A DNA stretch of 63,232 bases, counting the filler, from Collodictyon triciliatum (taxonomy: Eukaryota): NCBI GenBank assembly GCA_043381765.1. It is 15 parts of 15 records of this genome, joined end to end, with 100 filler letters (N's around TTAATTAATTAA, not from the genome) between each part and the next. Parts side by side here need not be neighbours in the genome. Positions count along the whole stretch, not along the records: positions 26,968 to 31,004 come from JBHJMP010006570.1; 14 more parts are not named here. One strand, written 5' to 3'. Positions 18,593-59,791 of the stretch are shown piece after piece; the stretch's first letter is position 1, and each line of letters begins with the position of its first letter. Below the pieces are notes generated by a model. That model was not told the DNA's origin and made no database searches. It saw nothing but the letters and a program-made list of their open reading frames with translations. Position numbers and translations under genes: made by a program.

Positions 18593-18692
18593 NNNNNNNN
18601 NNNNNNNNNNNNNNNNNNNNNNNNNNNNNNNNNNNNTTAATTAATTAANNNNNNNNNNNNNNNNNNNNNNNNNNNNNNNNNNNNNNNNNNNN

Positions 18693-21600
18693 GAAGGTGA
18701 ATTACCAACTAACCCACAATACGGAGAATTTTTCAATCCAAATCATGGCCATACCCTCGATGATGGGAAAACGCCTTCTTACTCGATATTTGTGCTACGA
18801 TGCGCACCCATTAAGAAATCTAGCGCCACGACGTATGAGTTCTTCCACAAATCGCTCTACGAATTCTTTGCTGCTGAATACATCAAAGATGAAATCAATA
18901 GTTCCGATGTGGAAAATAAAGATTCTGTCCAACCATCAACAGAGGCTCAAAATGTTGCATATTCTTCTGAAGCCGCGAATTCTAATAATGGAAAATCTGA
19001 TGCAAAATCATCAAGCACCGTGCTCTCCCATGTTGTTAATTCTGTGATGAAATCAAAAGTGAAGACAAAAGTTCTGGATAAAAAGCTTGAGCCTGCCATT
19101 CTGCTCAACCTGAGTGAAAAAGTGAACAAAGACAAAGCCTTCAAAGACAATCTGTTTTCAATCATCGAGCAGTCTAAGACAGATGCAACCAAAGCGCAAG
19201 CTGCGTCGAATGCCATCACAATTCTGAATTATGCTGATATTTCATTCAGCGGCATGGATTTCAGAGGGATTCAAATTCCAGATGCCGACATGTCACAGTC
19301 TGTTGCTGATGGTGCTAACTTCACTAATGCCAACTTGGAGGGTGTTTTGTTCTATAATGCATGTATTTCGAACTGTGTTTTTGATGACGCAATCATGAAA
19401 GGTGTTAATTTTGGTCGCTTGCCTTTGTTTTTGGGACATAGAAGTGATGTCACTGGTGTTTGCAGCATTCAAGGACCGAATGGTGAAAATTGGCTGGCTT
19501 CTGGAAGTTGTAATCCCTATAGTATTGTTGATAAAAGCATACGTATTTGGGATGTAGCCACAGGAAACCAAATCAAAATATTAGAGGGTCATACATATTT
19601 TGTATCGTGTATTTGCAGTATTCAAGGACCGAATGGTGAAAATTGGTTGGCTTCTGGAAGTTTTGATAAAACAATACTTATTCTTGATGTAGCCACAGGA
19701 AACCAAATCAAAACATTAGGAGGACATACAAATGGTGTCAATAGTGTTTGCAGTATTCAAGGACCGAATGGTGAAAGGTGGTTGGCCTCTGGAAGTGCTG
19801 ATATCTTTGGAGGTGGTGATAAAACAATACGCATTTGGGATATAGTCACAGGAAACCAAATCAAAACGTTAGAAGGACACACAGATAGTGTGACCAGTGT
19901 TTGCAATATTCAAGGGCCGAATGGTGAAAATTGGCTGGCATCTGGAAGCTATGATAATACAATATGCCTTTGGGATGTAGCCACAGCAAACCAAATCAAA
20001 TCGTTAGAAGGTCATACAGAACGTGTCAATAGTGTTTGCAGTATTCAAGGACCGAATGGTGAAACCTGGTTGGCTTCTGGAAGTAGTGATAATACAATAC
20101 GTATTTGGGATGTAGCCACAGGATACCAAATCAAAACATTAGAAGGACATACAAGCGACATTCGAGGTGTTTGCAGTATTCAAGGACCTAGTGGTAAACC
20201 CCGGTTGGCTTCTGGAAGTAGTGATGAAACAATACGTATCTGGGATGTAGCTACTGGCAACCAAATCAAAACATTAGAAGGTCATACAAGTTTTGTCAAC
20301 AGTGTTTGCAGTATTCAAGGACTGAATGGTGAAAATTGGTTGGCTTCTGGAAGTTATGATAAAACAATACGTATTTGGGATGTAGCCACAGGAAACGAAA
20401 TCAAAACATTAGAAGGTCATACAAGTTTTGTCACTAGTGTTTGCAGTGTTCAAGGACCGAATGGGGAAAATTGGCTGGCTTCTGGAAGTTATGATAATAC
20501 AATACGTATTTGGGATGTAGCCGAAGGAAACCAAATCAAAACATTAGAGGGTCATAAAGAGCCAGTCATGAGTGTTTGCAGTGTTCAAGGACCTAGTGGT
20601 AAACCCCGGTTGGCTTCTGGAAGTAGTGATAAAACAATACGTATTTGGGATGTAGCCACAGGAAACCAAATTAAAATATTAGAAGGACATACAGGTGAAA
20701 TCAATAGTGTTTGCAGTATTCAAGGACCGAATGGTGAAAAGTGGCTGGCTTCTGGAAGTGCTGATATAACAATACGTATTTGGGGTGTAGCCACAGGAAA
20801 TCAAATTAAAACATTAGAAGGTCATACAACCGCTGTCACTAGTGTTTGCAGTATTCAAGGACCGAATGGTGAAAATTGGCTGGCTTCTGGAAGTTATGAT
20901 AATACAATACGTATTTGGGATGTAGCCGAAGGAAACCAAATCAAAACATTAGAAGGACATATAAGAGGTGTCATGAGTGTTTGCAGTGTTCAAGGACCGA
21001 ATGGTGAAATATGGTTGGCTTCTGGAAGTGAGGATGGAACAATACATATTTGGGATGAAGCCATAGGAAATGAAATCAAAACATTAGAAGGACATATAAG
21101 AGGTGTCATGAGTGTTTGCAGTGTTCAAGGACCGAATGGTGAAATATGGTTGGCTTCTGGAAGTTGGGATAAGACAATACGTATTTGGGGTGTCGCTACA
21201 GAAAACCAAATACAATGTTCTCAAAAACCAAAAATGACCTACAACGAGAATAGTCGATTCATCATGAAAGATAAACCAGAAAAAATCATCGCAGTATTCA
21301 ATGTAAGAAGTGATAGGATTAACACGATCGATGCAAACAGAATAATGAATGTGAGAACTGTTCGAATTATCGGCCCAAGAACTGTTGAAGCTGTTAATAC
21401 TCGTATAAATAGAGCTGAACTGAGTGCGATGAACAAGAAACTATTCCTGCAAGAAGGTGCTGCTTCCTTTGATACGGACTTTGTTGCTTATTGTGAGCAG
21501 GGTAAGTTCACCAAGTTCCAAGCTCAAATGATGGCTGAGTGTTATGATAATGGATGGGGTGTTGAAAGGGACACCAAGAAAGCAGCTGAATGGTTTGGAA

Positions 21601-22025
21601 AGGCTGAAAACTTTAAAAAACTGAAGCAACTCGCACAACAAGGCTCAAAGGAGGCATTCAATGTCTTGAAAGAAATGGCTGATATGAAATATGAATATGG
21701 CGGATACATATATACACATGCTGTCTCTATTGTTGCTGAATGTTATGAGAATGGATGGGGTGTTGAGAAGGACACTTTACTGTCTCTTAAATGGGAAATA
21801 TTCAGTGGAAAAGCTGAAAACCTTGACAAATTGAAGCAACTATCCCAACAAGGCTCAAAAGAGGCATTCAATATTTTGAAAGAAATGGCTGAAATGAAAT
21901 ATGAATATGGCGGATACATATATACACAGGCTGTTTCTATTGTTGCTGAATGCTATGAGAATGGGTGGAGTGTTGAGAAAGACATCGAGAAAGCTGCTGA
22001 GTGGAAACAGAAAGCCTCAGCTTAA
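18693..22025 (+). CDS. NLR-like STAND protein (5'-truncated): NACHT winged-helix tail + pentapeptide repeats + 13 WD40 + SEL1-like repeats; intronless
   Basis: The frame is open from the contig start at 18693. It contains YEFFHKSLYEFFAAEYI (NACHT WHD motif), AASNAITILN..ISFSGMDFRGIQIPDADMS..ANFTNANLEGV (pentapeptide), 13 GH...WD repeats and AECYxNGWGVEKD SEL1-like repeats. Confidence 0.88.
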   Translation, partial: EGELPTNPQYGEFFNPNHGHTLDDGKTPSYSIFVLRCAPIKKSSATTYEFFHKSLYEFFAAEYIKDEINSSDVENKDSVQPSTEAQNVAYSSEAANSNNGKSDAKSSSTVLSHVVNSVMKSKVKTKVLDKKLEPAILLNLSEKVNKDKAFKDNLFSIIEQSKTDATKAQAASNAITILNYADISFSGMDFRGIQIPDADMSQSVADGANFTNANLEGVLFYNACISNCVFDDAIMKGVNFGRLPLFLGHRSDVTGVCSIQGPNGENWLASGSCNPYSIVDKSIRIWDVATGNQIKILEGHTYFVSCICSIQGPNGENWLASGSFDKTILILDVATGNQIKTLGGHTNGVNSVCSIQGPNGERWLASGSADIFGGGDKTIRIWDIVTGNQIKTLEGHTDSVTSVCNIQGPNGENWLASGSYDNTICLWDVATANQIKSLEGHTERVNSVCSIQGPNGETWLASGSSDNTIRIWDVATGYQIKTLEGHTSDIRGVCSIQGPSGKPRLASGSSDETIRIWDVATGNQIKTLEGHTSFVNSVCSIQGLNGENWLASGSYDKTIRIWDVATGNEIKTLEGHTSFVTSVCSVQGPNGENWLASGSYDNTIRIWDVAEGNQIKTLEGHKEPVMSVCSVQGPSGKPRLASGSSDKTIRIWDVATGNQIKILEGHTGEINSVCSIQGPNGEKWLASGSADITIRIWGVATGNQIKTLEGHTTAVTSVCSIQGPNGENWLASGSYDNTIRIWDVAEGNQIKTLEGHIRGVMSVCSVQGPNGEIWLASGSEDGTIHIWDEAIGNEIKTLEGHIRGVMSVCSVQGPNGEIWLASGSWDKTIRIWGVATENQIQCSQKPKMTYNENSRFIMKDKPEKIIAVFNVRSDRINTIDANRIMNVRTVRIIGPRTVEAVNTRINRAELSAMNKKLFLQEGAASFDTDFVAYCEQGKFTKFQAQMMAECYDNGWGVERDTKKAAEWFGKAENFKKLKQLAQQGSKEAFNVLKEMADMKYEYGGYIYTHAVSIVAECYENGWGVEKDTLLSLKWEIFSGKAENLDKLKQLSQQGSKEAFNILKEMAEMKYEYGGYIYTQAVSIVAECYENGWSVEKDIEKAAEWKQKASA
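19430..21205 (+). repeat. Coding tandem array of 13 highly similar ~135-bp (45-aa) WD40 units
   Basis: GAAGG(T/A)CATA recurs every 135 bp (e.g. ~20007, 20142, 20277 ... 21087). The consensus unit is LEGHTxxVxSVCSIQGPNGENWLASGSxDxTIRIWDVATGNQIKT. Confidence 0.95.
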
Positions 22026-26736: not shown

Positions 26737-27054
26737 GTAAGTAGACAATTTTATTACATCCCATTTAACAAGGATGTTGATGACTCTATCAAAAAAATAA
26801 AAGAAAAAAATAAAAGAAAAAAATAAAAGAAAAAAATAAAAGAAAAAAATAAAAGAAAAAAATAAAANNNNNNNNNNNNNNNNNNNNNNNNNNNNNNNNN
26901 NNNNNNNNNNNTTAATTAATTAANNNNNNNNNNNNNNNNNNNNNNNNNNNNNNNNNNNNNNNNNNNNTTTTTTTTTTTTTTTATTCCTAGGGGGTTCTTG
27001 TTTTTTTTTTTTTTTTTTTTTTTATTATTCTAGTCCACCTGCTTCTAAAAGACT

Positions 27055-27505
27055 ATGCCACATATTATGATTCGGCGCCTTATAGTTTCCTCCAAGTGTC
27101 ACCAACACGACGAGGACTGTCTTTTTTGCAAGATCGTTCAAAAGAAGATCCCGTCGCTGAACCTTCTTGAGACAGACTTGACATACTCCTTCCTCGATAT
27201 AAATCCTCTTTCTAACGGCCATGTACTCGTCATACCCAAGCAGCATGGAGTTAAATGTAAGTGGTTGAGTTTTTAGAGGCATTTGAAGACCCACAGTAGA
27301 TTTTATGTATCACGATACCTGGAATTGTGGCAAAAAACAAAAACAAAAACACGTAAAAGCATGAAAGCATACAAACAATGATTGAAACAGCCCTTGAACG
27401 GGTACATACATTATTTCACACGAATGAGCTATCATCGTCACATTATCCATATTATCATTATTTTAAAAGAAAAATACTAGATTCAGTTGTTATACCTGTT
27501 CACCT

Positions 27506-27554
<49 letters not shown>

Positions 27555-27561
27555 TTCTTAC

Positions 27562-27628
<67 letters not shown>

Positions 27629-28198
27629 GAGTTCTTAATTCTATATCTGACAATTAATAAAACTATACATAAAACCAGTACATGAAATCGATGACGAATA
27701 TCTTGCGGACATGCTGCCAGTAGCTAAGAAGATTATAAGTGCCCTCGGCCCCGAGAACTACAATATCCTGCAAAATAACGGGCGCTTGGCCCATCAACAA
27801 GTCATGCATGTCCATTTTCATATCATCCCGAAGCCAGATTCCACCAATGTAACTATGATGACAATAATACATATCTTTGCATAATTTTGGGCAGTGGGTC
27901 TCAAACGTTAATAGCTGACTCCTACAACACAATATTTCTTACTTGGCTTTTTTCTATTTCGATTTCCATCGCAAACCTGAAGCATACCAACAAACGATAA
28001 TGATGGAAAATCATGATCTGAAGAGAGAAAAAAATGCCTAAAATATATGCCAAAATAGACGGTTCTTATCACCCATGCCTTTTTTTTCCCTTTCTTTATG
28101 TAACATAGGGACTCGGGGTCGTTTGGCAACCGAAGAGCGCAAGTGTAGATTCGCTGAAGGCCAGACAAAAGGAAATCTTGGACAAGCTTTCGGCCTGA
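27055..28198 (+). CDS. HINT1: HIT-family nucleotide hydrolase (HINT/Hnt1-like), 3 exons visible
   Basis: DCLFCKIVQKKIPS...FLDINPLSNGHVLVIPKQH|...YNILQNNGRLAHQQVMHVHFHIIPKP|GLGVVWQPK...LSA*, with the histidine triad HVHFH. The start codon is uncertain. Confidence 0.9.
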
Positions 28199-28669
28199 GC
28201 TTTCGCCACGGACAGTTCCACATATGTGATAATATTTCCATGAATATGACTACTATTGGAACATATTTGCTTGAAAAACAAACCCCCAAAATGAAGAAAA
28301 ATCAAAAATTCAAAAATGACAAACAACCTCTTGCCTTGGCCTCAGACAGAACCCGCCCTATAAACCTGCCACCAAACATGCATTTCAAAGAAGCATACTA
28401 TCCACACTTGCGGCGGCAATCATGTTGTTTGGGGTCGATATGTTGACTTTCAGTCGCAATTGCTATGCGGCCGTCCTTTCGAACTCGCCAAATCAGCTCT
28501 CAGCGTTTTGTCTCAAATCACTTATATAAAAAAAAAAAACAACTTCGTGTGACTGCTTGCCACAATGCGCATATTTTGAGGGTCTCGGTGGATGCTTAAT
28601 TTTACATCAATTGATTTTGTGCAGTTATTTTTTATTTATTAAATTGACTGATTGACTAAAGTTTTATTA

Positions 28670-30612
28670 CAATTGAAAACTCGGCAGTTTTCTAAAGGAA
28701 AAAGTAAAGCAAAGACTTTCAGATAAAGAAAAGAAAAAGGTCTTGAGTCTGATTATCTAAAGTATGTAAAACCAGACTATCGAAATGTGAAAACATCTCT
28801 GAAGTCGATTGTAAAGAATGCGAATGACTATTACAAAAAACGATACTGTTTTATTGTGTCATAATTTGGTTACAGACGCTTATCTGTTTGCAAGATGTTA
28901 CATATTGAAATCATAACAACTCCCAACAACCGATGAAATGGGTTTTTTGTACGCTTTAAAGACAGTTCAGAGTAGTTTCACAAGGTAGACTCGCAAGTTT
29001 TTTTTTTAAAAAAACCAGAAAAGGGCTACGACATGATTACTTTTTATCTCTATGATTTTCGATTCCTTTTGTCCCGAGAAGAACGCTTTCCGTTGGTTAG
29101 ACTGTCTCACGTATTACTGTACTTGGCGAAGCAAATGTTAACAGCTTATCATAATAACATTAAGGAGCATTTTGTAAAGAGGTTTCTGCGCTTTATAAAT
29201 CAAACAGTTCCTAAAGATGAGAATATTACGGAAGCTATTAAAAAGGCAGAGTTACGAAAGTTAAAAAAGCCATCTTCAAGAACCTCGAAATACCGAAAGA
29301 ATATAAAGATAAGACTAAAATACATCTGCATCATATCATTCCCAGCAAAGTTGTAAAAGGTATCGAATATGACGTCAAAGTCAATCCAGATAAGTACATA
29401 CCATGTCTGATTTACATGAATCGCATTTTTGGGGACATTGGAACCAAACTGTTTCAACCAATCTCTACAAGAACTACCAATATACCATATCGTATTACTC
29501 TAGATATTGTATGTTTGATAGATTTATTAGTATTATCTGAAAAAGAATCACTACTGAAGAATATATCAGGATGCAAAGAGACCTATGGGATGATTATTTT
29601 GAAATGAAGAAGAGGGTCTTTCATCAAACAGACTACAATTTCAAATACATAATACAAACAGACGGCTTGGCGGTGTCATTATTATTTGAAAAGAAAGGTA
29701 TTTCAAATTCAAAAATCAAAAATAATCAAAAAAAACCCGAGATTATGTTTATATAGATGAACTTTCCGAAGAGCAATTATCTTCATTAGCGACAAAAAAA
29801 TAGTTAGAGTGGACGCATGCAAGTTTGATTTGGTTTATATGGTGGATGAGACAAGTAAGAAATTACGTTACACGGCTCACCAAAGAAGACATGATAGCAA
29901 ATCTCTTAAAAATCACAAAATACCCTTGCGCGAAAAAGAAAGTAGAAAAGTACAACGCTTCAGGGATATGTATGGCAACGGGTTTACAAAGTGCTGTTTC
30001 TTTTGGTCTCATGACTTTTGAAGAGAATCAGTGGTTTGAGACATTAAGAGTATCTTTAATCGATTTAGAGACAAAACTGAGTAAACATAATTCATGCGCG
30101 GTCGATTATGAGAAATTTCGGAAACATTTATCTATGAAATCAAGATACTAGATATAATTATCCAGATTTTATAAACAAGTAACTTTTCGAAAGAATGCGA
30201 GCATGGAGACAGTATGTTAATGCAAAAAGAAGTGAAGAATTCTTTATGGACCGAATCGAAAAGACATTTGGCAAGGATGTTGTACTGGCGTATGGATGCT
30301 GGAGCAGAAAATCTCCGATGAACCATTCTATGCTAACAATCGGAAGAGGATTACGAAAAATACTATCCAAGCGTTTTGAAACAGTTAGTGTAGATGAATT
30401 TAGGACGTCCAAGAAGTGTTTCAACTGCGAAAAAGAACTGGAATATATGACACTGAATGGAAATTCAAAAAAAAGTGCATAGATGTCTCATATGTAAAGA
30501 ATGCCATCGCTCAGAAAGCAAACAAAGTATATTCTTGACAAGGGACTTTAACAGCGCTAAAAATATACTCAAAAAAGTTCTTTTAAACCTTCAAAATATT
30601 CGTACACATCTC
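28670..30612 (+). pseudogene. Fanzor1 (eukaryotic TnpB-like RNA-guided RuvC nuclease), near full length, frameshifted
   Basis: Intronless. Pieces in order: RNVKTSLKSIVKN, LYLAKQMLTAYHNNIKEHF, YDVKVNPDKYIPCLIYMN, LFQPISTRTTNIPYRITLD, IQTDGLAVSLLF, RuvC-I IVRVDACKFDLVYM, VLAYGCWS, RuvC-II VSVDEFRTSKKCFNC, zinc finger CKEC, RuvC-III TRDFNSAKNI. Confidence 0.88.
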
Positions 30613-30622
30613 TAAAAAATAC

Positions 30623-30741
30623 AGGCTGTTGGGGCTTTCCAGGCAGCCTTCACCACTACACGACCTTTGTGAAAAAAGTGGTGAGACTTTGGGTATTAGC
30701 ACACCAGGTTTACCAATTGAAAGGTATTAATACTCCTTCTA
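30623..30741 (+). ncRNA. Candidate Fanzor omegaRNA scaffold / element right end (copy 1)
   Basis: Non-coding and immediately after the RuvC-III end. Consecutive hairpins: AGGCTG..CAGCCT, TCACCACT..AGTGGTGA (inner CACGA/TTGTG) and GACTTTGG..CCAGGTT. Conserved in the second copy at 58869-58987. Confidence 0.6.
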
Positions 30742-30934
30742 TTAAAGATAAATAAATCAAGAATGGAAACTGCCAACGCGAATCCTTATCTCCAGCTTAT
30801 ACTACACGGCGCGCATTAGATATTCTTTCGTCGTGTCACCTTTTGAGTAATCTTTGATCGCTTCACTAGAAGCCACATTTCACTTCTAGAATGCCAGGAT
30901 GTATCGTTGACTCTTATTATTATTGTTATTATTA

Positions 30935-31004
<70 letters not shown>

Positions 31005-31117
31005 NNNNNNNNNNNNNNNNNNNNNNNNNNNNNNNNNNNNNNNNNNNNTTAATTAATTAANNNNNNNNNNNNNNNNNNNNNNNNNNNNNNNNNNNNNNNN
31101 NNNNAAAAAAAAAAAAA

Positions 31118-58630: not shown

Positions 58631-58868
58631 TGGCGCGAAAGACGACAATTACAATAAAGCTTCGCTGTGCCACTCATCACACAATACAGAGAAACGAAGA
58701 AGAAAACTGATTGTAAAAGTTTGTGTAAGCCAATTTTAGATTTGCTGCATTGCTTTTGGAACATGAAATATCACGCCTGTTGATAGTTTCACCTATCCTC
58801 CAGACAATCTTTTTTTTTTTTTTTTTTTTTATTTCCTGGATTTAAATGATTATCCAGTTATTCTAATA

Positions 58869-58987
58869 CTAGAAGGGGTATATCAATCGAAAGATTAGTA
58901 AACCTGATGCGCTGTATCCAAGGTCTCACCACTTTTTTCACAAAGATTGTGTAGTGGTGAAGGCTGCCAGGAAAGACCCAACAGCCT
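58869..58987 (-). ncRNA. Candidate Fanzor omegaRNA scaffold / element right end (copy 2)
   Basis: Minus strand AGGCTGTTGGGTCTTTCCTGGCAGCCTTCACCACTACACAATCTTTGTGAAAAAAGTGGTGAGACCTTGGATACAGCGCATCAGGTTTACTAAT, homologous to 30623-30717 with the stems retained. Confidence 0.6.
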
Positions 58988-59136
58988 ATTACTTTAAAGA
59001 GGAAGGTGTATGCATTTTTTTGAAGGATAGAAAGAACTTTATGAGGTGTATTTTTAGCGCTGCTAAAGTCCCTTATCAAGAATACACTTTGTTTACTTTC
59101 TGAGCGAATGTATTCTTTACATATGAGACATCTATG

Positions 59137-59226
<90 letters not shown>

Positions 59227-59791
59227 TATTTCCTTTCAGTTTCGTATATTCCAGTTCTTTTTCGCAGTTACAGCACATCTTGGAGATTCAAAATTCATCT
59301 ACACTAATTGTTTCAAAACGTTTGGATAATATATTTCGTAATCCTCTTCCGATTGTTGGCATAGAACGGTTCATCTGAGATTTTCTGCTCCAGTCTCCAT
59401 ACGCCAGTACAATATCCTTGCCAAATGTCTTTTCGATTCGGTCCATAAACAACTATTCACTTCTTTTTGTATTAACACACAGTCTCCATATCATCTTTCA
59501 AAAAGTTATTCGTTCATAAAATCTGGATAATTCTATCTGGTATCTTGATTTCATAGGAACATATTTCCGAATTTTTTCATAATCGACCGTGCATGAGTTA
59601 TGTTAACTCAGTTCTGTCTCTTAATCGATTAAAGATACTCTTGATGTCTCAAACTGCTGATTCTCTTCAAAAGTCCTGAGACCTAAAGAAATAGCACTTT
59701 GAAAATCTGTTGCCATGCATATCCCTTAAGCATTGTACTTTTCTTTTGTCTCACGCAAGAGTATTTTGTGATTTTTAAGAGATTTGCTATC
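58988..59791 (-). pseudogene. Second, 5'-truncated copy of the same Fanzor1 family
   Basis: The reverse complement aligns with 29893-30622 (e.g. ATGGACCGAATCGAAAAGACATTTGGCAAGGAT identical). It encodes FMDRIEKTFGKDIVLAYGDWSRKSQMNRSMPTIGRGLR and SKMCCNCEKELEY. A poly(T) at 59139-59225 replaces the short A-run of copy 1. Confidence 0.9.

Follow-up and report, generated by a model that had tools for sequence, protein, structure and literature searches.

A previously undescribed Fanzor1 pseudogene, very probably lying within a short multi-copy mobile element, in Collodictyon triciliatum

Fanzor1 proteins are RNA-guided DNA cutters encoded on the mobile DNA of eukaryotes and giant viruses. Generally, the 3' end of the element yields their guide RNA, and DNA is cut beside a short target-adjacent motif; thousands of eukaryotic and giant-virus loci with Fanzor1 genes or their decayed remains are already on record. 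The closest described proteins with PDB entries are SpuFz1 of Spizellomyces punctatus (8GKH, 9CEU–9CEZ), PpFz1 of Parasitella parasitica (9CF0–9CF3), and GtFz1 of Guillardia theta (9CER–9CET). In Bao and Jurka (2013; PMC3627910), the Fanzor1 motif is given as D-X(125,275)-[TS][TS]-X-X-[C4 zinc finger]-X(5,50)-RD, and Fanzor1-only non-autonomous families are described, e.g., PUl-4, CRe-1/2/3, and CMe-1A. Fanzors have a rearranged RuvC-II site with the catalytic Glu relocated downstream (PMC10530073), seen as the conserved G500/E536 in PMC3627910.

The analyzed window is a stretch of 63,232 nucleotides (filler included) made of 15 parts of 15 records of the C. triciliatum assembly. It contains, on the + strand, a broken TnpB/Fanzor-type reading frame at 28727–30603, visible in the list of ORFs and in tblastn, which runs through frames 2, 1, 3, 1, 2, 3, and 1. 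The original prediction was of a near full-length but decayed Fanzor1, and a frameshift-aware protein-to-DNA alignment agrees with it: 267 of 578 aligned positions are identical to residues 3–599 of the closest full-length relative (P0005, 634 aa; score 903), which itself aligns with SpuFz1 (8gkh) over residues 14–607 and 409–1026, respectively (E 9.2e-37). A profile of the family, built from 25 relatives, matches PpFz1 (5.2e-88), SpuFz1 (1e-84), and GtFz1 (3.8e-68), followed by LaTranC (3e-4); at E ≤ 0.01 no other PDB chains appear, and LaTranC is weaker by about 64 orders of magnitude. The 99-aa piece at 30183–30482, taken separately, matches PpFz1 (E 1.3e-8), SpuFz1 (0.019), and GtFz1 (0.07), with no further PDB match at E < 1. 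A full HMMER scan of a library of 1.84 billion proteins gives 945 matches to this piece at E ≤ 1e-3, including 132 at E ≤ 1e-10, while a word-index protein search for its longer relatives gives 0 at E ≤ 1e-3. Judged by sequence, 28727–30603 is a pseudogene belonging to Fanzor1, with a match far beyond chance; it is a previously undescribed, decayed member of this already known group.

All motifs named in the original prediction (IQTDG, RuvC-I, VDEFRTSK, CxxC...CxxC, and RuvC-III) are found at the positions given in Table 1. Here, columns of the alignment of the 25 relatives were classed as invariant or nearly invariant. The pseudogene retains 20 of 24 invariant columns, including the four Cys of the zinc finger and the D/E/D catalytic residues, all three of which had been predicted to survive, and 17 of 18 nearly invariant ones. 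The decay of DPG was also correctly noted, the Asp being followed by Ala and Cys in place of the family-invariant Pro and Gly. The order of residues agrees with the motif of PMC3627910 given above: D at 29812, T-S at 30405/30408, two residues, and then Cys at 30417. The last Cys of the zinc finger is 12 codons from R-D (30541/30544), and the spacing from the RuvC-I D to T-S is about 195 codons (read through) in the window copy versus 160 in P0005.

Table 1. Features of the Fanzor1 element and of its second copy; positions count along the whole window.
Feature	Position	Strand	Details
Repeat unit, copy 1 (Fanzor1-only element, ~2.1 kb)	~28631..30745	+	From contig cover, loose ends, and homology with copy 2; 5' end ± a few bases
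Fanzor1 pseudogene, remnant coding region	28727..30603	+	Frameshift-aware alignment to P0005
IQTDG motif	29652..29666	+	T318/D319/G320 of the family alignment at 29658/29661/29664
RuvC-I	29812..29820	+	Asp D372 retained at 29812; invariant P373 replaced by A, G374 by C
Canonical RuvC-II position	30294..30305	+	Gly (G-C-W-S), as in Fanzors; G496, W498, S499 retained
Relocated catalytic Glu, in VDEFRTSK	30396..30410	+	E530 at 30396; T533/S534 at 30405/30408; aligned to PpFz1 and SpuFz1
C4 zinc finger (CxxC ... CxxC)	30417..30504	+	Cys at 30417, 30426, 30493, 30502; frameshift at the A8 run 30467–30474 divides the finger
RuvC-III (R-D-x-N ... N)	30541..30564	+	R580/D581 at 30541/30544, N583 at 30550, N587 at 30562; all retained
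Two adjacent stem-loops, 3' of RuvC-III	30623..30684	+	Both stems retained in copy 2; candidate part of an omegaRNA scaffold, or transposon end
Copy 2, 5'-truncated, 85–88% identical	58867..59791	-	blastn and alignment

The rearranged RuvC-II is present as Gly 30294 and Glu 30396, 34 residues apart, both columns being invariant in the 25 relatives. Such a Gly at the canonical position with a Glu downstream is the arrangement described for Fanzors (PMC10530073), and the alignment with SpuFz1 also takes in the IQTDG block and extends through the long N-terminal half. Together with the family profile, which at E ≤ 0.01 finds in the PDB the three Fanzor1 proteins and the far weaker LaTranC, these features leave next to no room for placing the locus in another TnpB-derived group (prokaryotic TnpB, Fanzor2, or Cas12-like), the point in favor being that Pfam detects only the common Cas12f1-like TNB zinc-ribbon domain (PF07282). 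The window piece matches this domain below cut-off (E 0.02), and two of the eight relatives scanned reach the cut-off; all Pfam matches of eight separate window pieces are sub-threshold (Cas12f1-like_TNB, E 0.02; DUF5958, 3.9e-4). SpuFz1 and the window family agree in domain order and motifs, including Gly in place of Glu at the canonical RuvC-II, a catalytic Glu shifted downstream, and a C4 zinc finger; in sequence they are far apart, as seen from the E-value of the 99-aa piece, and the gene in the window is a pseudogene. Of the solved structures, PpFz1 matches both the window piece and the family profile best; it and GtFz1 are larger than the window family (~600–650 aa).

The reading frame is interrupted by 9–10 frameshifts (28832, 29028, 29264, 29563, 29724, 29789, ~29929, 30194, and 30465), among which the ~29929 site was placed at 30037 by the alignment to P0005 and repositioned by eye against P0001, a metagenomic fragment. 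In-frame stops of the substitution type occur at 28914, 30149, and 30155; two further ones, at 28986 and 29007, are within a poorly aligned stretch, giving a total of 3–5. The start codon is lost, and TAA at 28724 closes frame 2. Hence, the seven short ORFs of the original prediction reflect a frame that is truly fragmented, although their count understates the damage. Having no start codon, 9–10 frameshifts, at least three nonsense codons, and no Pro-Gly in RuvC-I, the window copy cannot produce a Fanzor1 protein.

Six of nine frameshift sites are at most 8 nt from an A run of at least five, compared to about 25% of the region being equally near such a run; some frameshifts could therefore be homopolymer assembly errors rather than mutations. 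The in-frame stops and the change from DPG to DAC are independent of this question. If all frame changes were homopolymer errors of assembly or sequencing, or short introns, the gene could be functional and an intact Fanzor1 made from the locus; the proximity to A runs fits this, as do other copies lacking the indel at 30195–30202 and some having A7 at 30467. However, the differences at 30195–30202 are between copies, and hence silent on errors in the reads of the window copy, while the stops at 28914, 30149, and 30155 are substitutions, the last two facing sense codons in copy 2. The replacement of invariant P373 and G374, the loss of the start codon, and the absence of any frame-bridging GT..AG segment in an inspection by eye also argue against function, which we consider very unlikely. 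The WD40 ORF at 18693–22025, elsewhere in the window, is open over 1110 aa; it has only two runs of at least six, and thus calibrates little.

The pseudogene fills most of a repeat unit that consists essentially of the gene with ~95 nt on its 5' side and ~130 nt on its 3' side; the limits originally predicted, 28670–30741, are near those of this unit. Contigs of four public runs cover 28600–30745, with zero depth over 30746–30800; loose contig ends are at 28630 and 28632, and the homology between copies 1 and 2 stops at 30744. In copy 2 the A8 run of copy 1 has expanded to A86 (59140–59225), and a single frame runs through 59710–59215, with five stops of its own. The TAG and TAA of copy 1 (30149 and 30155) correspond there to Gln and Glu codons. 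Since copy 2 has five different stops, and sense codons at the positions of the copy-1 stops 30149 and 30155, the lesions examined are specific to one copy or the other, and the two window copies would have decayed independently after insertion.

At 85% likeness or more, the four public runs contain 351, 338, 33, and 126 contig pieces of the family, the two runs with about 350 pieces each being X1 and X3. Internal deletions of the element are visible in single contigs. The 4-nt indel at 30195–30202, a frameshift in copy 1, is absent from most other copies; in X1, seven contigs without it account for 142.5 of the depth of 148.8. A7 in place of A8 at 30467 is seen in a minority of copies (six contigs in X1 and six in X3). 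The suggestion that intact copies may exist is thus made plausible by copy 2 and by the contig pieces of these two runs, among which some of the copy-1 lesions are often missing, but no intact copy was seen, and the frame also appears broken in three short proteins of the window family derived from NCBI. Overall, the stretch is with high probability a dead Fanzor1 gene copy within a short eukaryotic mobile element of ~2.1 kb that exists in multiple copies. By homology, an intact copy would encode a DNA endonuclease of ~600–635 aa that is guided by RNA, with the split RuvC of TnpB type (Asp, relocated Glu, and Asp) and a C4 zinc finger. Two public runs and freshwater metagenomes contain the family in abundance.

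Similar to the window element, PUl-4, CRe-1/2/3, and CMe-1A are short, carry only Fanzor1, and have many copies of varied age, with the transposase elsewhere (PMC3627910). A unit of only ~2.1 kb leaves no room for a transposase, Mariner-type DDE or other, and tblastn with 38 DDE_3-type neighbors of viral loci is negative around the element at E ≤ 1. The original remark that no transposase is visible beside the gene, and that the element is probably non-autonomous, is consistent with both observations; without a transposase of its own, it would have had to rely on an enzyme acting in trans. Among the 25 longest of 110 inverted-repeat pairs in the scaffold, none links the two element ends, those listed being made of low-complexity A/T sequence; comparison of the two termini by eye, with the exact 5' end known to a few bases, likewise shows no matching inverted repeat. 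Neither feature of the Tc1/mariner (PGv-1) type, i.e., a Mariner-type transposase or TIRs with TA duplication, is seen. This differs from the families of Bao and Jurka, which end in recognizable Mariner TIRs and TA duplications or in Helitron2 termini, and from the Spu-1 loci, for which inverted repeats and a guide RNA are described (Saito et al., 2023, PMC10432273); at the window element no TIR was found and the guide RNA is a candidate.

The nearest full-length relatives found are on giant-virus contigs (IMG/VR GVMAG records), nearest of all L001–L006. Relatives are encoded by 518 of 540 IMG/VR pattern matches; 80 loci were kept, 33 of them with GVMAG in the contig name, on contigs up to 289 kb. 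The viral Fanzor1 proteins are of similar length (~590–650 aa) and have all invariant motifs in common with the window family, the identity being 46–48% over pieces and 44% over 551 columns. The viral loci are intact (an ORF of at least 450 aa in 138 of 160), whereas the window copy is broken. L001–L006 have a DDE_3 (Tc1/mariner-like) transposase 322–443 nt upstream on the other strand, without a counterpart near the window element, and 72 of 131 loci have a small coiled-coil ORF directly upstream, not found at the window element. An insert of ~35 aa after RuvC-I is common to the window family and P0001, unlike the viral loci. The nearest metagenome locus, L081, which is intact and 58% identical over the piece, was considered and is outside the window's subfamily.

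These relatives raise the alternative that viral DNA brought the Fanzor in, the stretch then being what is left of an integrated giant-virus genome rather than a cellular transposon. In the tree (LG+G4; built from unnamed relatives alone), the window copy belongs to a 16-row group with all six viral-contig rows (SH-aLRT 80), in line with such an origin; yet this grouping is weak, the window branch is long (0.91), and the nearest viral protein is as distant as stated above. The sharp repeat ends ~2.1 kb apart, in at least two unrelated scaffolds, also speak for a cellular element. The copy-1 scaffold, of 4037 bp, extends 1.7 kb upstream of the element and 0.26 kb beyond its 3' end; a HIT-domain exon lies ~750 nt upstream, no viral hallmark gene is seen in these flanks, and the composition of the element equals theirs (33.8% vs. 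35.2% GC). A viral remnant is accordingly very unlikely as well, and the reading as a mobile element of a eukaryote is retained. An ORF beside copy 2 has a weak, below-cutoff match to GST_C_6.

A broader reading is tentative and, in our view, rather doubtful: the window copy may be one dead member of a still or recently active 2.1-kb Fanzor1-only family, lacking transposase and TIRs, with dozens of copies in a freshwater eukaryote and its nearest full-length kin in giant-virus genomes. If this holds, any intact copies elsewhere in that genome would supply a compact (~620 aa) Fanzor1 together with its own guide RNA at the 3' end, and the family would be a concrete case of Fanzor exchange between giant virus and host. 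The window copy alone is of little weight, being an ordinary relic of a many-copy repeat family, useful as a pointer. Because the family is abundant, other copies are free of some lesions, and the nearest intact relatives are viral, a survey of the full assembly could turn up a compact Fanzor1 that is still intact, together with its guide RNA, and could help to link a giant-virus Fanzor clade to a host lineage.

Again by homology, the 3' end of the element would be transcribed into the guide RNA of the intact form, and this RNA would direct cutting next to a short target-adjacent motif. Rfam gives no match at gathering scores in the whole window; at E ≤ 1, the sole match in 28400–31004 is CrcZ, outside the element and judged to be due to chance. 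C-terminal tails of the relatives, compared with 30540–30780 in all frames, show no significant match (best relevant E 0.047). The wider stretch 30540–30755 folds with a z-score of -1.07. Within it, the two adjacent stem-loops of Table 1 show almost no covariation, as only two sequences are available; for this hairpin stretch, picked after seeing the fold, the z-scores are -3.6 in copy 1 and -4.6 in copy 2, and 0 of 200 shuffles reach that stability.

The 99-aa fragment encoded at 30183-30482 matches three Fanzor1 chains in the PDB, those of Parasitella parasitica (PpFz1, 9cf0; E 1.3e-8), Spizellomyces punctatus (SpuFz1; 0.019), and Guillardia theta (GtFz1; 0.07); every other match there has E>1. 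The full HMMER scan of this fragment against 1.84 billion representatives yields 945 matches at E<=1e-3, of which 132 reach E<=1e-10; a large share of the matched proteins have 590-700 aa, the matched part being at about residues 460-560. In tblastn, full-length relatives tile 29042-30603 of the window in frames 2, 1, 3, 1, 2, 3, 1. A frameshift-aware alignment places 28727-30603 (plus strand, copy 1) along residues 3-599 of the closest full-length relative, P0005 (634 aa), with 267/578 aligned positions identical; this alignment and the stop-to-stop ORF list confirm the original observation that the short ORFs join into one Fanzor-type protein. Residues 14-607 of P0005 align with SpuFz1 (E 9.2e-37), and the profile of 25 full-length relatives (A2) matches PpFz1 (5.2e-88), SpuFz1 (1e-84), and GtFz1 (3.8e-68); besides Fanzor1 chains, only LaTranC (3e-4) is seen at E<=0.01. 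Pfam recognizes in the family the shared Cas12f1-like TNB zinc ribbon alone, at or below cut-off. Strong matches in these searches, proposed against Fanzor, TnpB, and Cas12, are to Fanzor1 chains alone, and the chance that copy 1 belongs to another TnpB-derived group is close to nil.

Copy 1 retains 20 of the 24 invariant columns of A2, including the four cysteines and D372, E530, and D581, hence all three catalytic acidic residues, as predicted, and 17 of the 18 nearly invariant ones. RuvC-II had been assigned to VDEFRTSK; its Glu is indeed conserved, but it corresponds to the relocated Glu that Fanzors typically have, the canonical position being occupied by Gly. The same rearrangement of RuvC-II is documented in Jiang et al. 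(PMC10530073) and, as conserved G500/E536, in Bao and Jurka (PMC3627910), whose motif D-X(125,275)-[TS][TS]-X-X-C4-X(5,50)-RD copy 1 contains. The PDB matches, profile, invariant columns, relocated Glu, and this motif make membership in Fanzor1 well supported at the sequence level; the tree described below consists of unnamed relatives.

Coordinates of features in the window and in fetched viral or metagenomic loci
Feature	Position	Strand	Remark
Frameshifts, copy 1	~28832, 29028, 29264, 29563, 29724, 29789, 29929, 30194, 30465		placed to within a few bases
In-frame stops, copy 1	28914, 30149, 30155
Further in-frame stops, copy 1	28986, 29007		poorly aligned part
D372	29812
E530	30396
D581	30544
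Gly at canonical RuvC-II position	30294		G-C-W-S; 34 residues upstream of E530
Copy 1 vs copy 2	29893-30474 vs 59791-59218		blastn, 87.6% over 582 columns
Copy 1 vs copy 2	30467-30717 vs 59147-58894		blastn, 84.7% over 255 columns
Stem-loop 1	30623-30649		3' of RuvC-III
Stem-loop 2	30650-30684		adjoins stem-loop 1
HIT-domain exon	27651-27884	+	PF01230, E 3.3e-12; ~750 nt upstream of element
Pkinase match	5923-6354
Open 1126-aa ORF	18645-22025	+	ORF list
Transposase, locus L001	4641-5678	-
Transposase, locus L002	4651-5679	-
Coiled-coil ORF	L010:1776-2063, L011:5625-5924, L013:5624-5878		69 further loci

The gene of copy 1 is dead. The alignment counted ten frameshifts, the seventh at 30037; comparison by eye with another relative, P0001, which shares an insert of ~35 aa with copy 1, moved it to ~29929 and also took away one apparent stop. 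The reading frame has no ATG, and TAA at 28724 closes frame 2. The decayed DPG noticed in RuvC-I is confirmed, with Ala-Cys replacing the invariant Pro-Gly, and E399 is replaced by Asp. Six of nine frameshift sites have an A run of at least five no more than 8 nt away, compared with ~25% of the region. This placement fits slippage in a slippage-prone genome, given that the A8 run of copy 1 is A86 in copy 2, and could also be partly explained by homopolymer errors. The in-frame stops and the missing motif residues are independent of homopolymer errors, and it is highly improbable that errors or introns hide a working gene here.

The proposed blastn search for further copies finds, within the window, a second one on another scaffold (copy 2, 58867-59791, minus strand), the homology reaching 30744 and 58867 in the alignment. 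Copy 2 is 5'-truncated and keeps a single frame over 59710-59215, yet has five stops of its own; the TAG and TAA of copy 1 correspond to CAG and GAA in it, hence the two copies decayed separately. The counterpart of the A8 run, in the zinc-finger region, is an uninterrupted stretch of 86 A (59140-59225, T on the plus strand), explained either by extreme lengthening of the homopolymer or by an artefact of assembly.

Contigs from four public runs were placed on 28600-30800 at >=85% likeness, giving 351, 338, 33, and 126 pieces; in run X1, the likeness classes 99+, 95-99, 90-95, and under 90 hold 48, 77, 141, and 85 pieces. Cover extends from ~28630 to 30745, with zero over 30746-30800 in all four runs, and loose contig ends occur at 28630 and 28632, which defines a repeat unit of 2.1 kb (~28631-30745): the gene with ~95 nt on its 5' side and ~130 nt on its 3' side. 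One letter at 30195 is absent from seven X1 contigs carrying 142.5/148.8 depth, and the letters at 30197 and 30202 are also absent from most; dropping these letters, four in all, restores F-R-K-M-R-W-R-Q as in relatives (read against loose-end sequences). Six contigs in X1 and six in X3 have one A fewer at 30467. Thus, at least two frameshifts of copy 1 are private or polymorphic. Single contigs of the family carry internal deletions, and three short NCBI-derived family proteins (P0060, P0093, P0125; 70-76% identical over matched parts) look frame-broken themselves. The suggestion that intact copies may exist gains plausibility from other copies that lack some frameshifts of copy 1, but none intact was seen among the two window copies, the contigs of the four runs, and these three proteins.

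The 25 longest of 110 inverted pairs in the scaffold are low-complexity A/T pairs, and no terminal inverted repeat joining the element ends was found among them; the two termini, compared by eye, do not match either, and with a few bases of leeway in the 5' end they delimit no target duplication. Fanzor elements carry their guide RNA in non-coding DNA on the 3' side, next to the right end (PMC10530073); two stem-loops, retained in both copies, are located in the corresponding place here. Their stretch, picked after the fold was seen, is more stable than shuffles (z -3.6 and -4.6, 0/200 as stable); for the wider 216-nt stretch 30540-30755, z is -1.07. Position 30641 is T in all other contigs and in copy 2, where the first stem is continuous; in copy 1 it is bulged. 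These stem-loops are a candidate guide-RNA scaffold, and 30604-30730 may be a diverged coding tail; Rfam gives no match anywhere in the window at gathering scores, and over 28400-31004 at E<=1 just a chance CrcZ match lying outside the element. A patch of ~8 nt at ~30714-30722 is roughly the reverse complement of its counterpart in copy 2 at ~58889-58897 (TTGAAAGG vs TCTTTCGA), as if a short segment in a hairpin loop had been inverted.

The observations here concern homology and motifs, decay, copy number, and the size of the unit; published work (PMC10432273, PMC10530073) allows a mechanism to be added: an intact family protein would bind RNA made from the 3' end of the element, the RNA end would pair with a DNA target beside a short motif, and both strands would be cut by the one RuvC site. 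Copy 1 performs none of these steps.

Relatives are encoded by 518/540 pattern hits in IMG/VR and by 487/597 in JGI metagenomes. Contig names contain GVMAG, which we take to denote giant-virus bins, for 33 of the 80 retained IMG/VR loci (contigs up to 289 kb), and a Fanzor-like ORF of >=450 aa is intact in 138 of the 160 fetched loci. The nearest ones, L001-L006, are 46-48% identical to window pieces. For a quick LG+G4 tree, 182 proteins, those from the library scan restricted to 560-760 aa, were reduced to 56 (one per group at >=70% identity over >=400 aa); copy 1, read through with X at each break, made 57 rows. Its branch is long (0.91), and it groups, with weak support (SH-aLRT 80), among 16 rows that include all six viral-contig rows; its top identity in this set is 44% over 551 columns, with L001.

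An ATG-started ORF is present in 131 loci, 33 of which carry a DDE_3/HTH transposase close to it. For L001-L006, this is a Tc1/mariner-like DDE_3 + HTH transposase (Pfam DDE_3 1.3e-13 and 1.5e-15 on this type) encoded on the opposite strand, 322-443 nt upstream, the Mariner-type setting that Bao and Jurka report (PMC3627910). In 72/131 loci, the gene is preceded on the same strand by a small lysine-rich coiled-coil ORF that matches no Pfam family (median 94 aa, median 61 nt away) and may represent a partner, so far undescribed, of Fanzor1 genes in giant viruses. Neither partner matches near the window element at E<=1, in line with the original remark that no transposase is visible beside it.

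Pieces of ~4.03 kb are joined in the window by N44-TTAATTAATTAA-N44 linkers (e.g., N-run positions 31005-31104), so features across a linker are not genomic neighbours; copy 1 lies in piece 26968-31004 (4037 bp), hence its genuine context is limited to 1.7 kb on the upstream side and 0.26 kb on the downstream side. The DNA looks eukaryotic, with a mean GC of 37%, very abundant microsatellites, and domain matches on short open stretches (Pkinase, HIT). That the stretch is a piece of an integrated giant virus is very unlikely, given the sharp 2.1-kb element ends, copies on unrelated scaffolds, the HIT-domain exon on the upstream flank, a composition equal to that of the flanks, and an identity to viral proteins of only 44-48%.

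Fanzor1 ranges over fungi, protists, arthropods, plants, and giant viruses (PMC10432273), thousands of Fanzor loci have been found (PMC10530073), and a 2013 study reported non-autonomous families that encode Fanzor1 alone, as well as old, decayed ones (PMC3627910). The window element is of this same kind, a new, decayed member by general literature comparison, mildly interesting in that its family is abundant, lacks recognisable ends, and shows affinity to Fanzors of giant viruses.

Elsewhere in the window, the open 1126-aa ORF shows Pfam WD40 at 12 stretches (E 9.4e-118; 1110 aa scanned), and its tail has repeated A-E-C-Y-E-N-G-W-G/S-V-E-K-D units, presumably Sel1-like. Among the relatives, P0004, a 378-aa Fanzor1 fragment, is named '6-pyruvoyl-tetrahydropterin synthase' in its JGI/IMG source, which looks like a mis-annotation, since it aligns with Fanzor1 relatives throughout.
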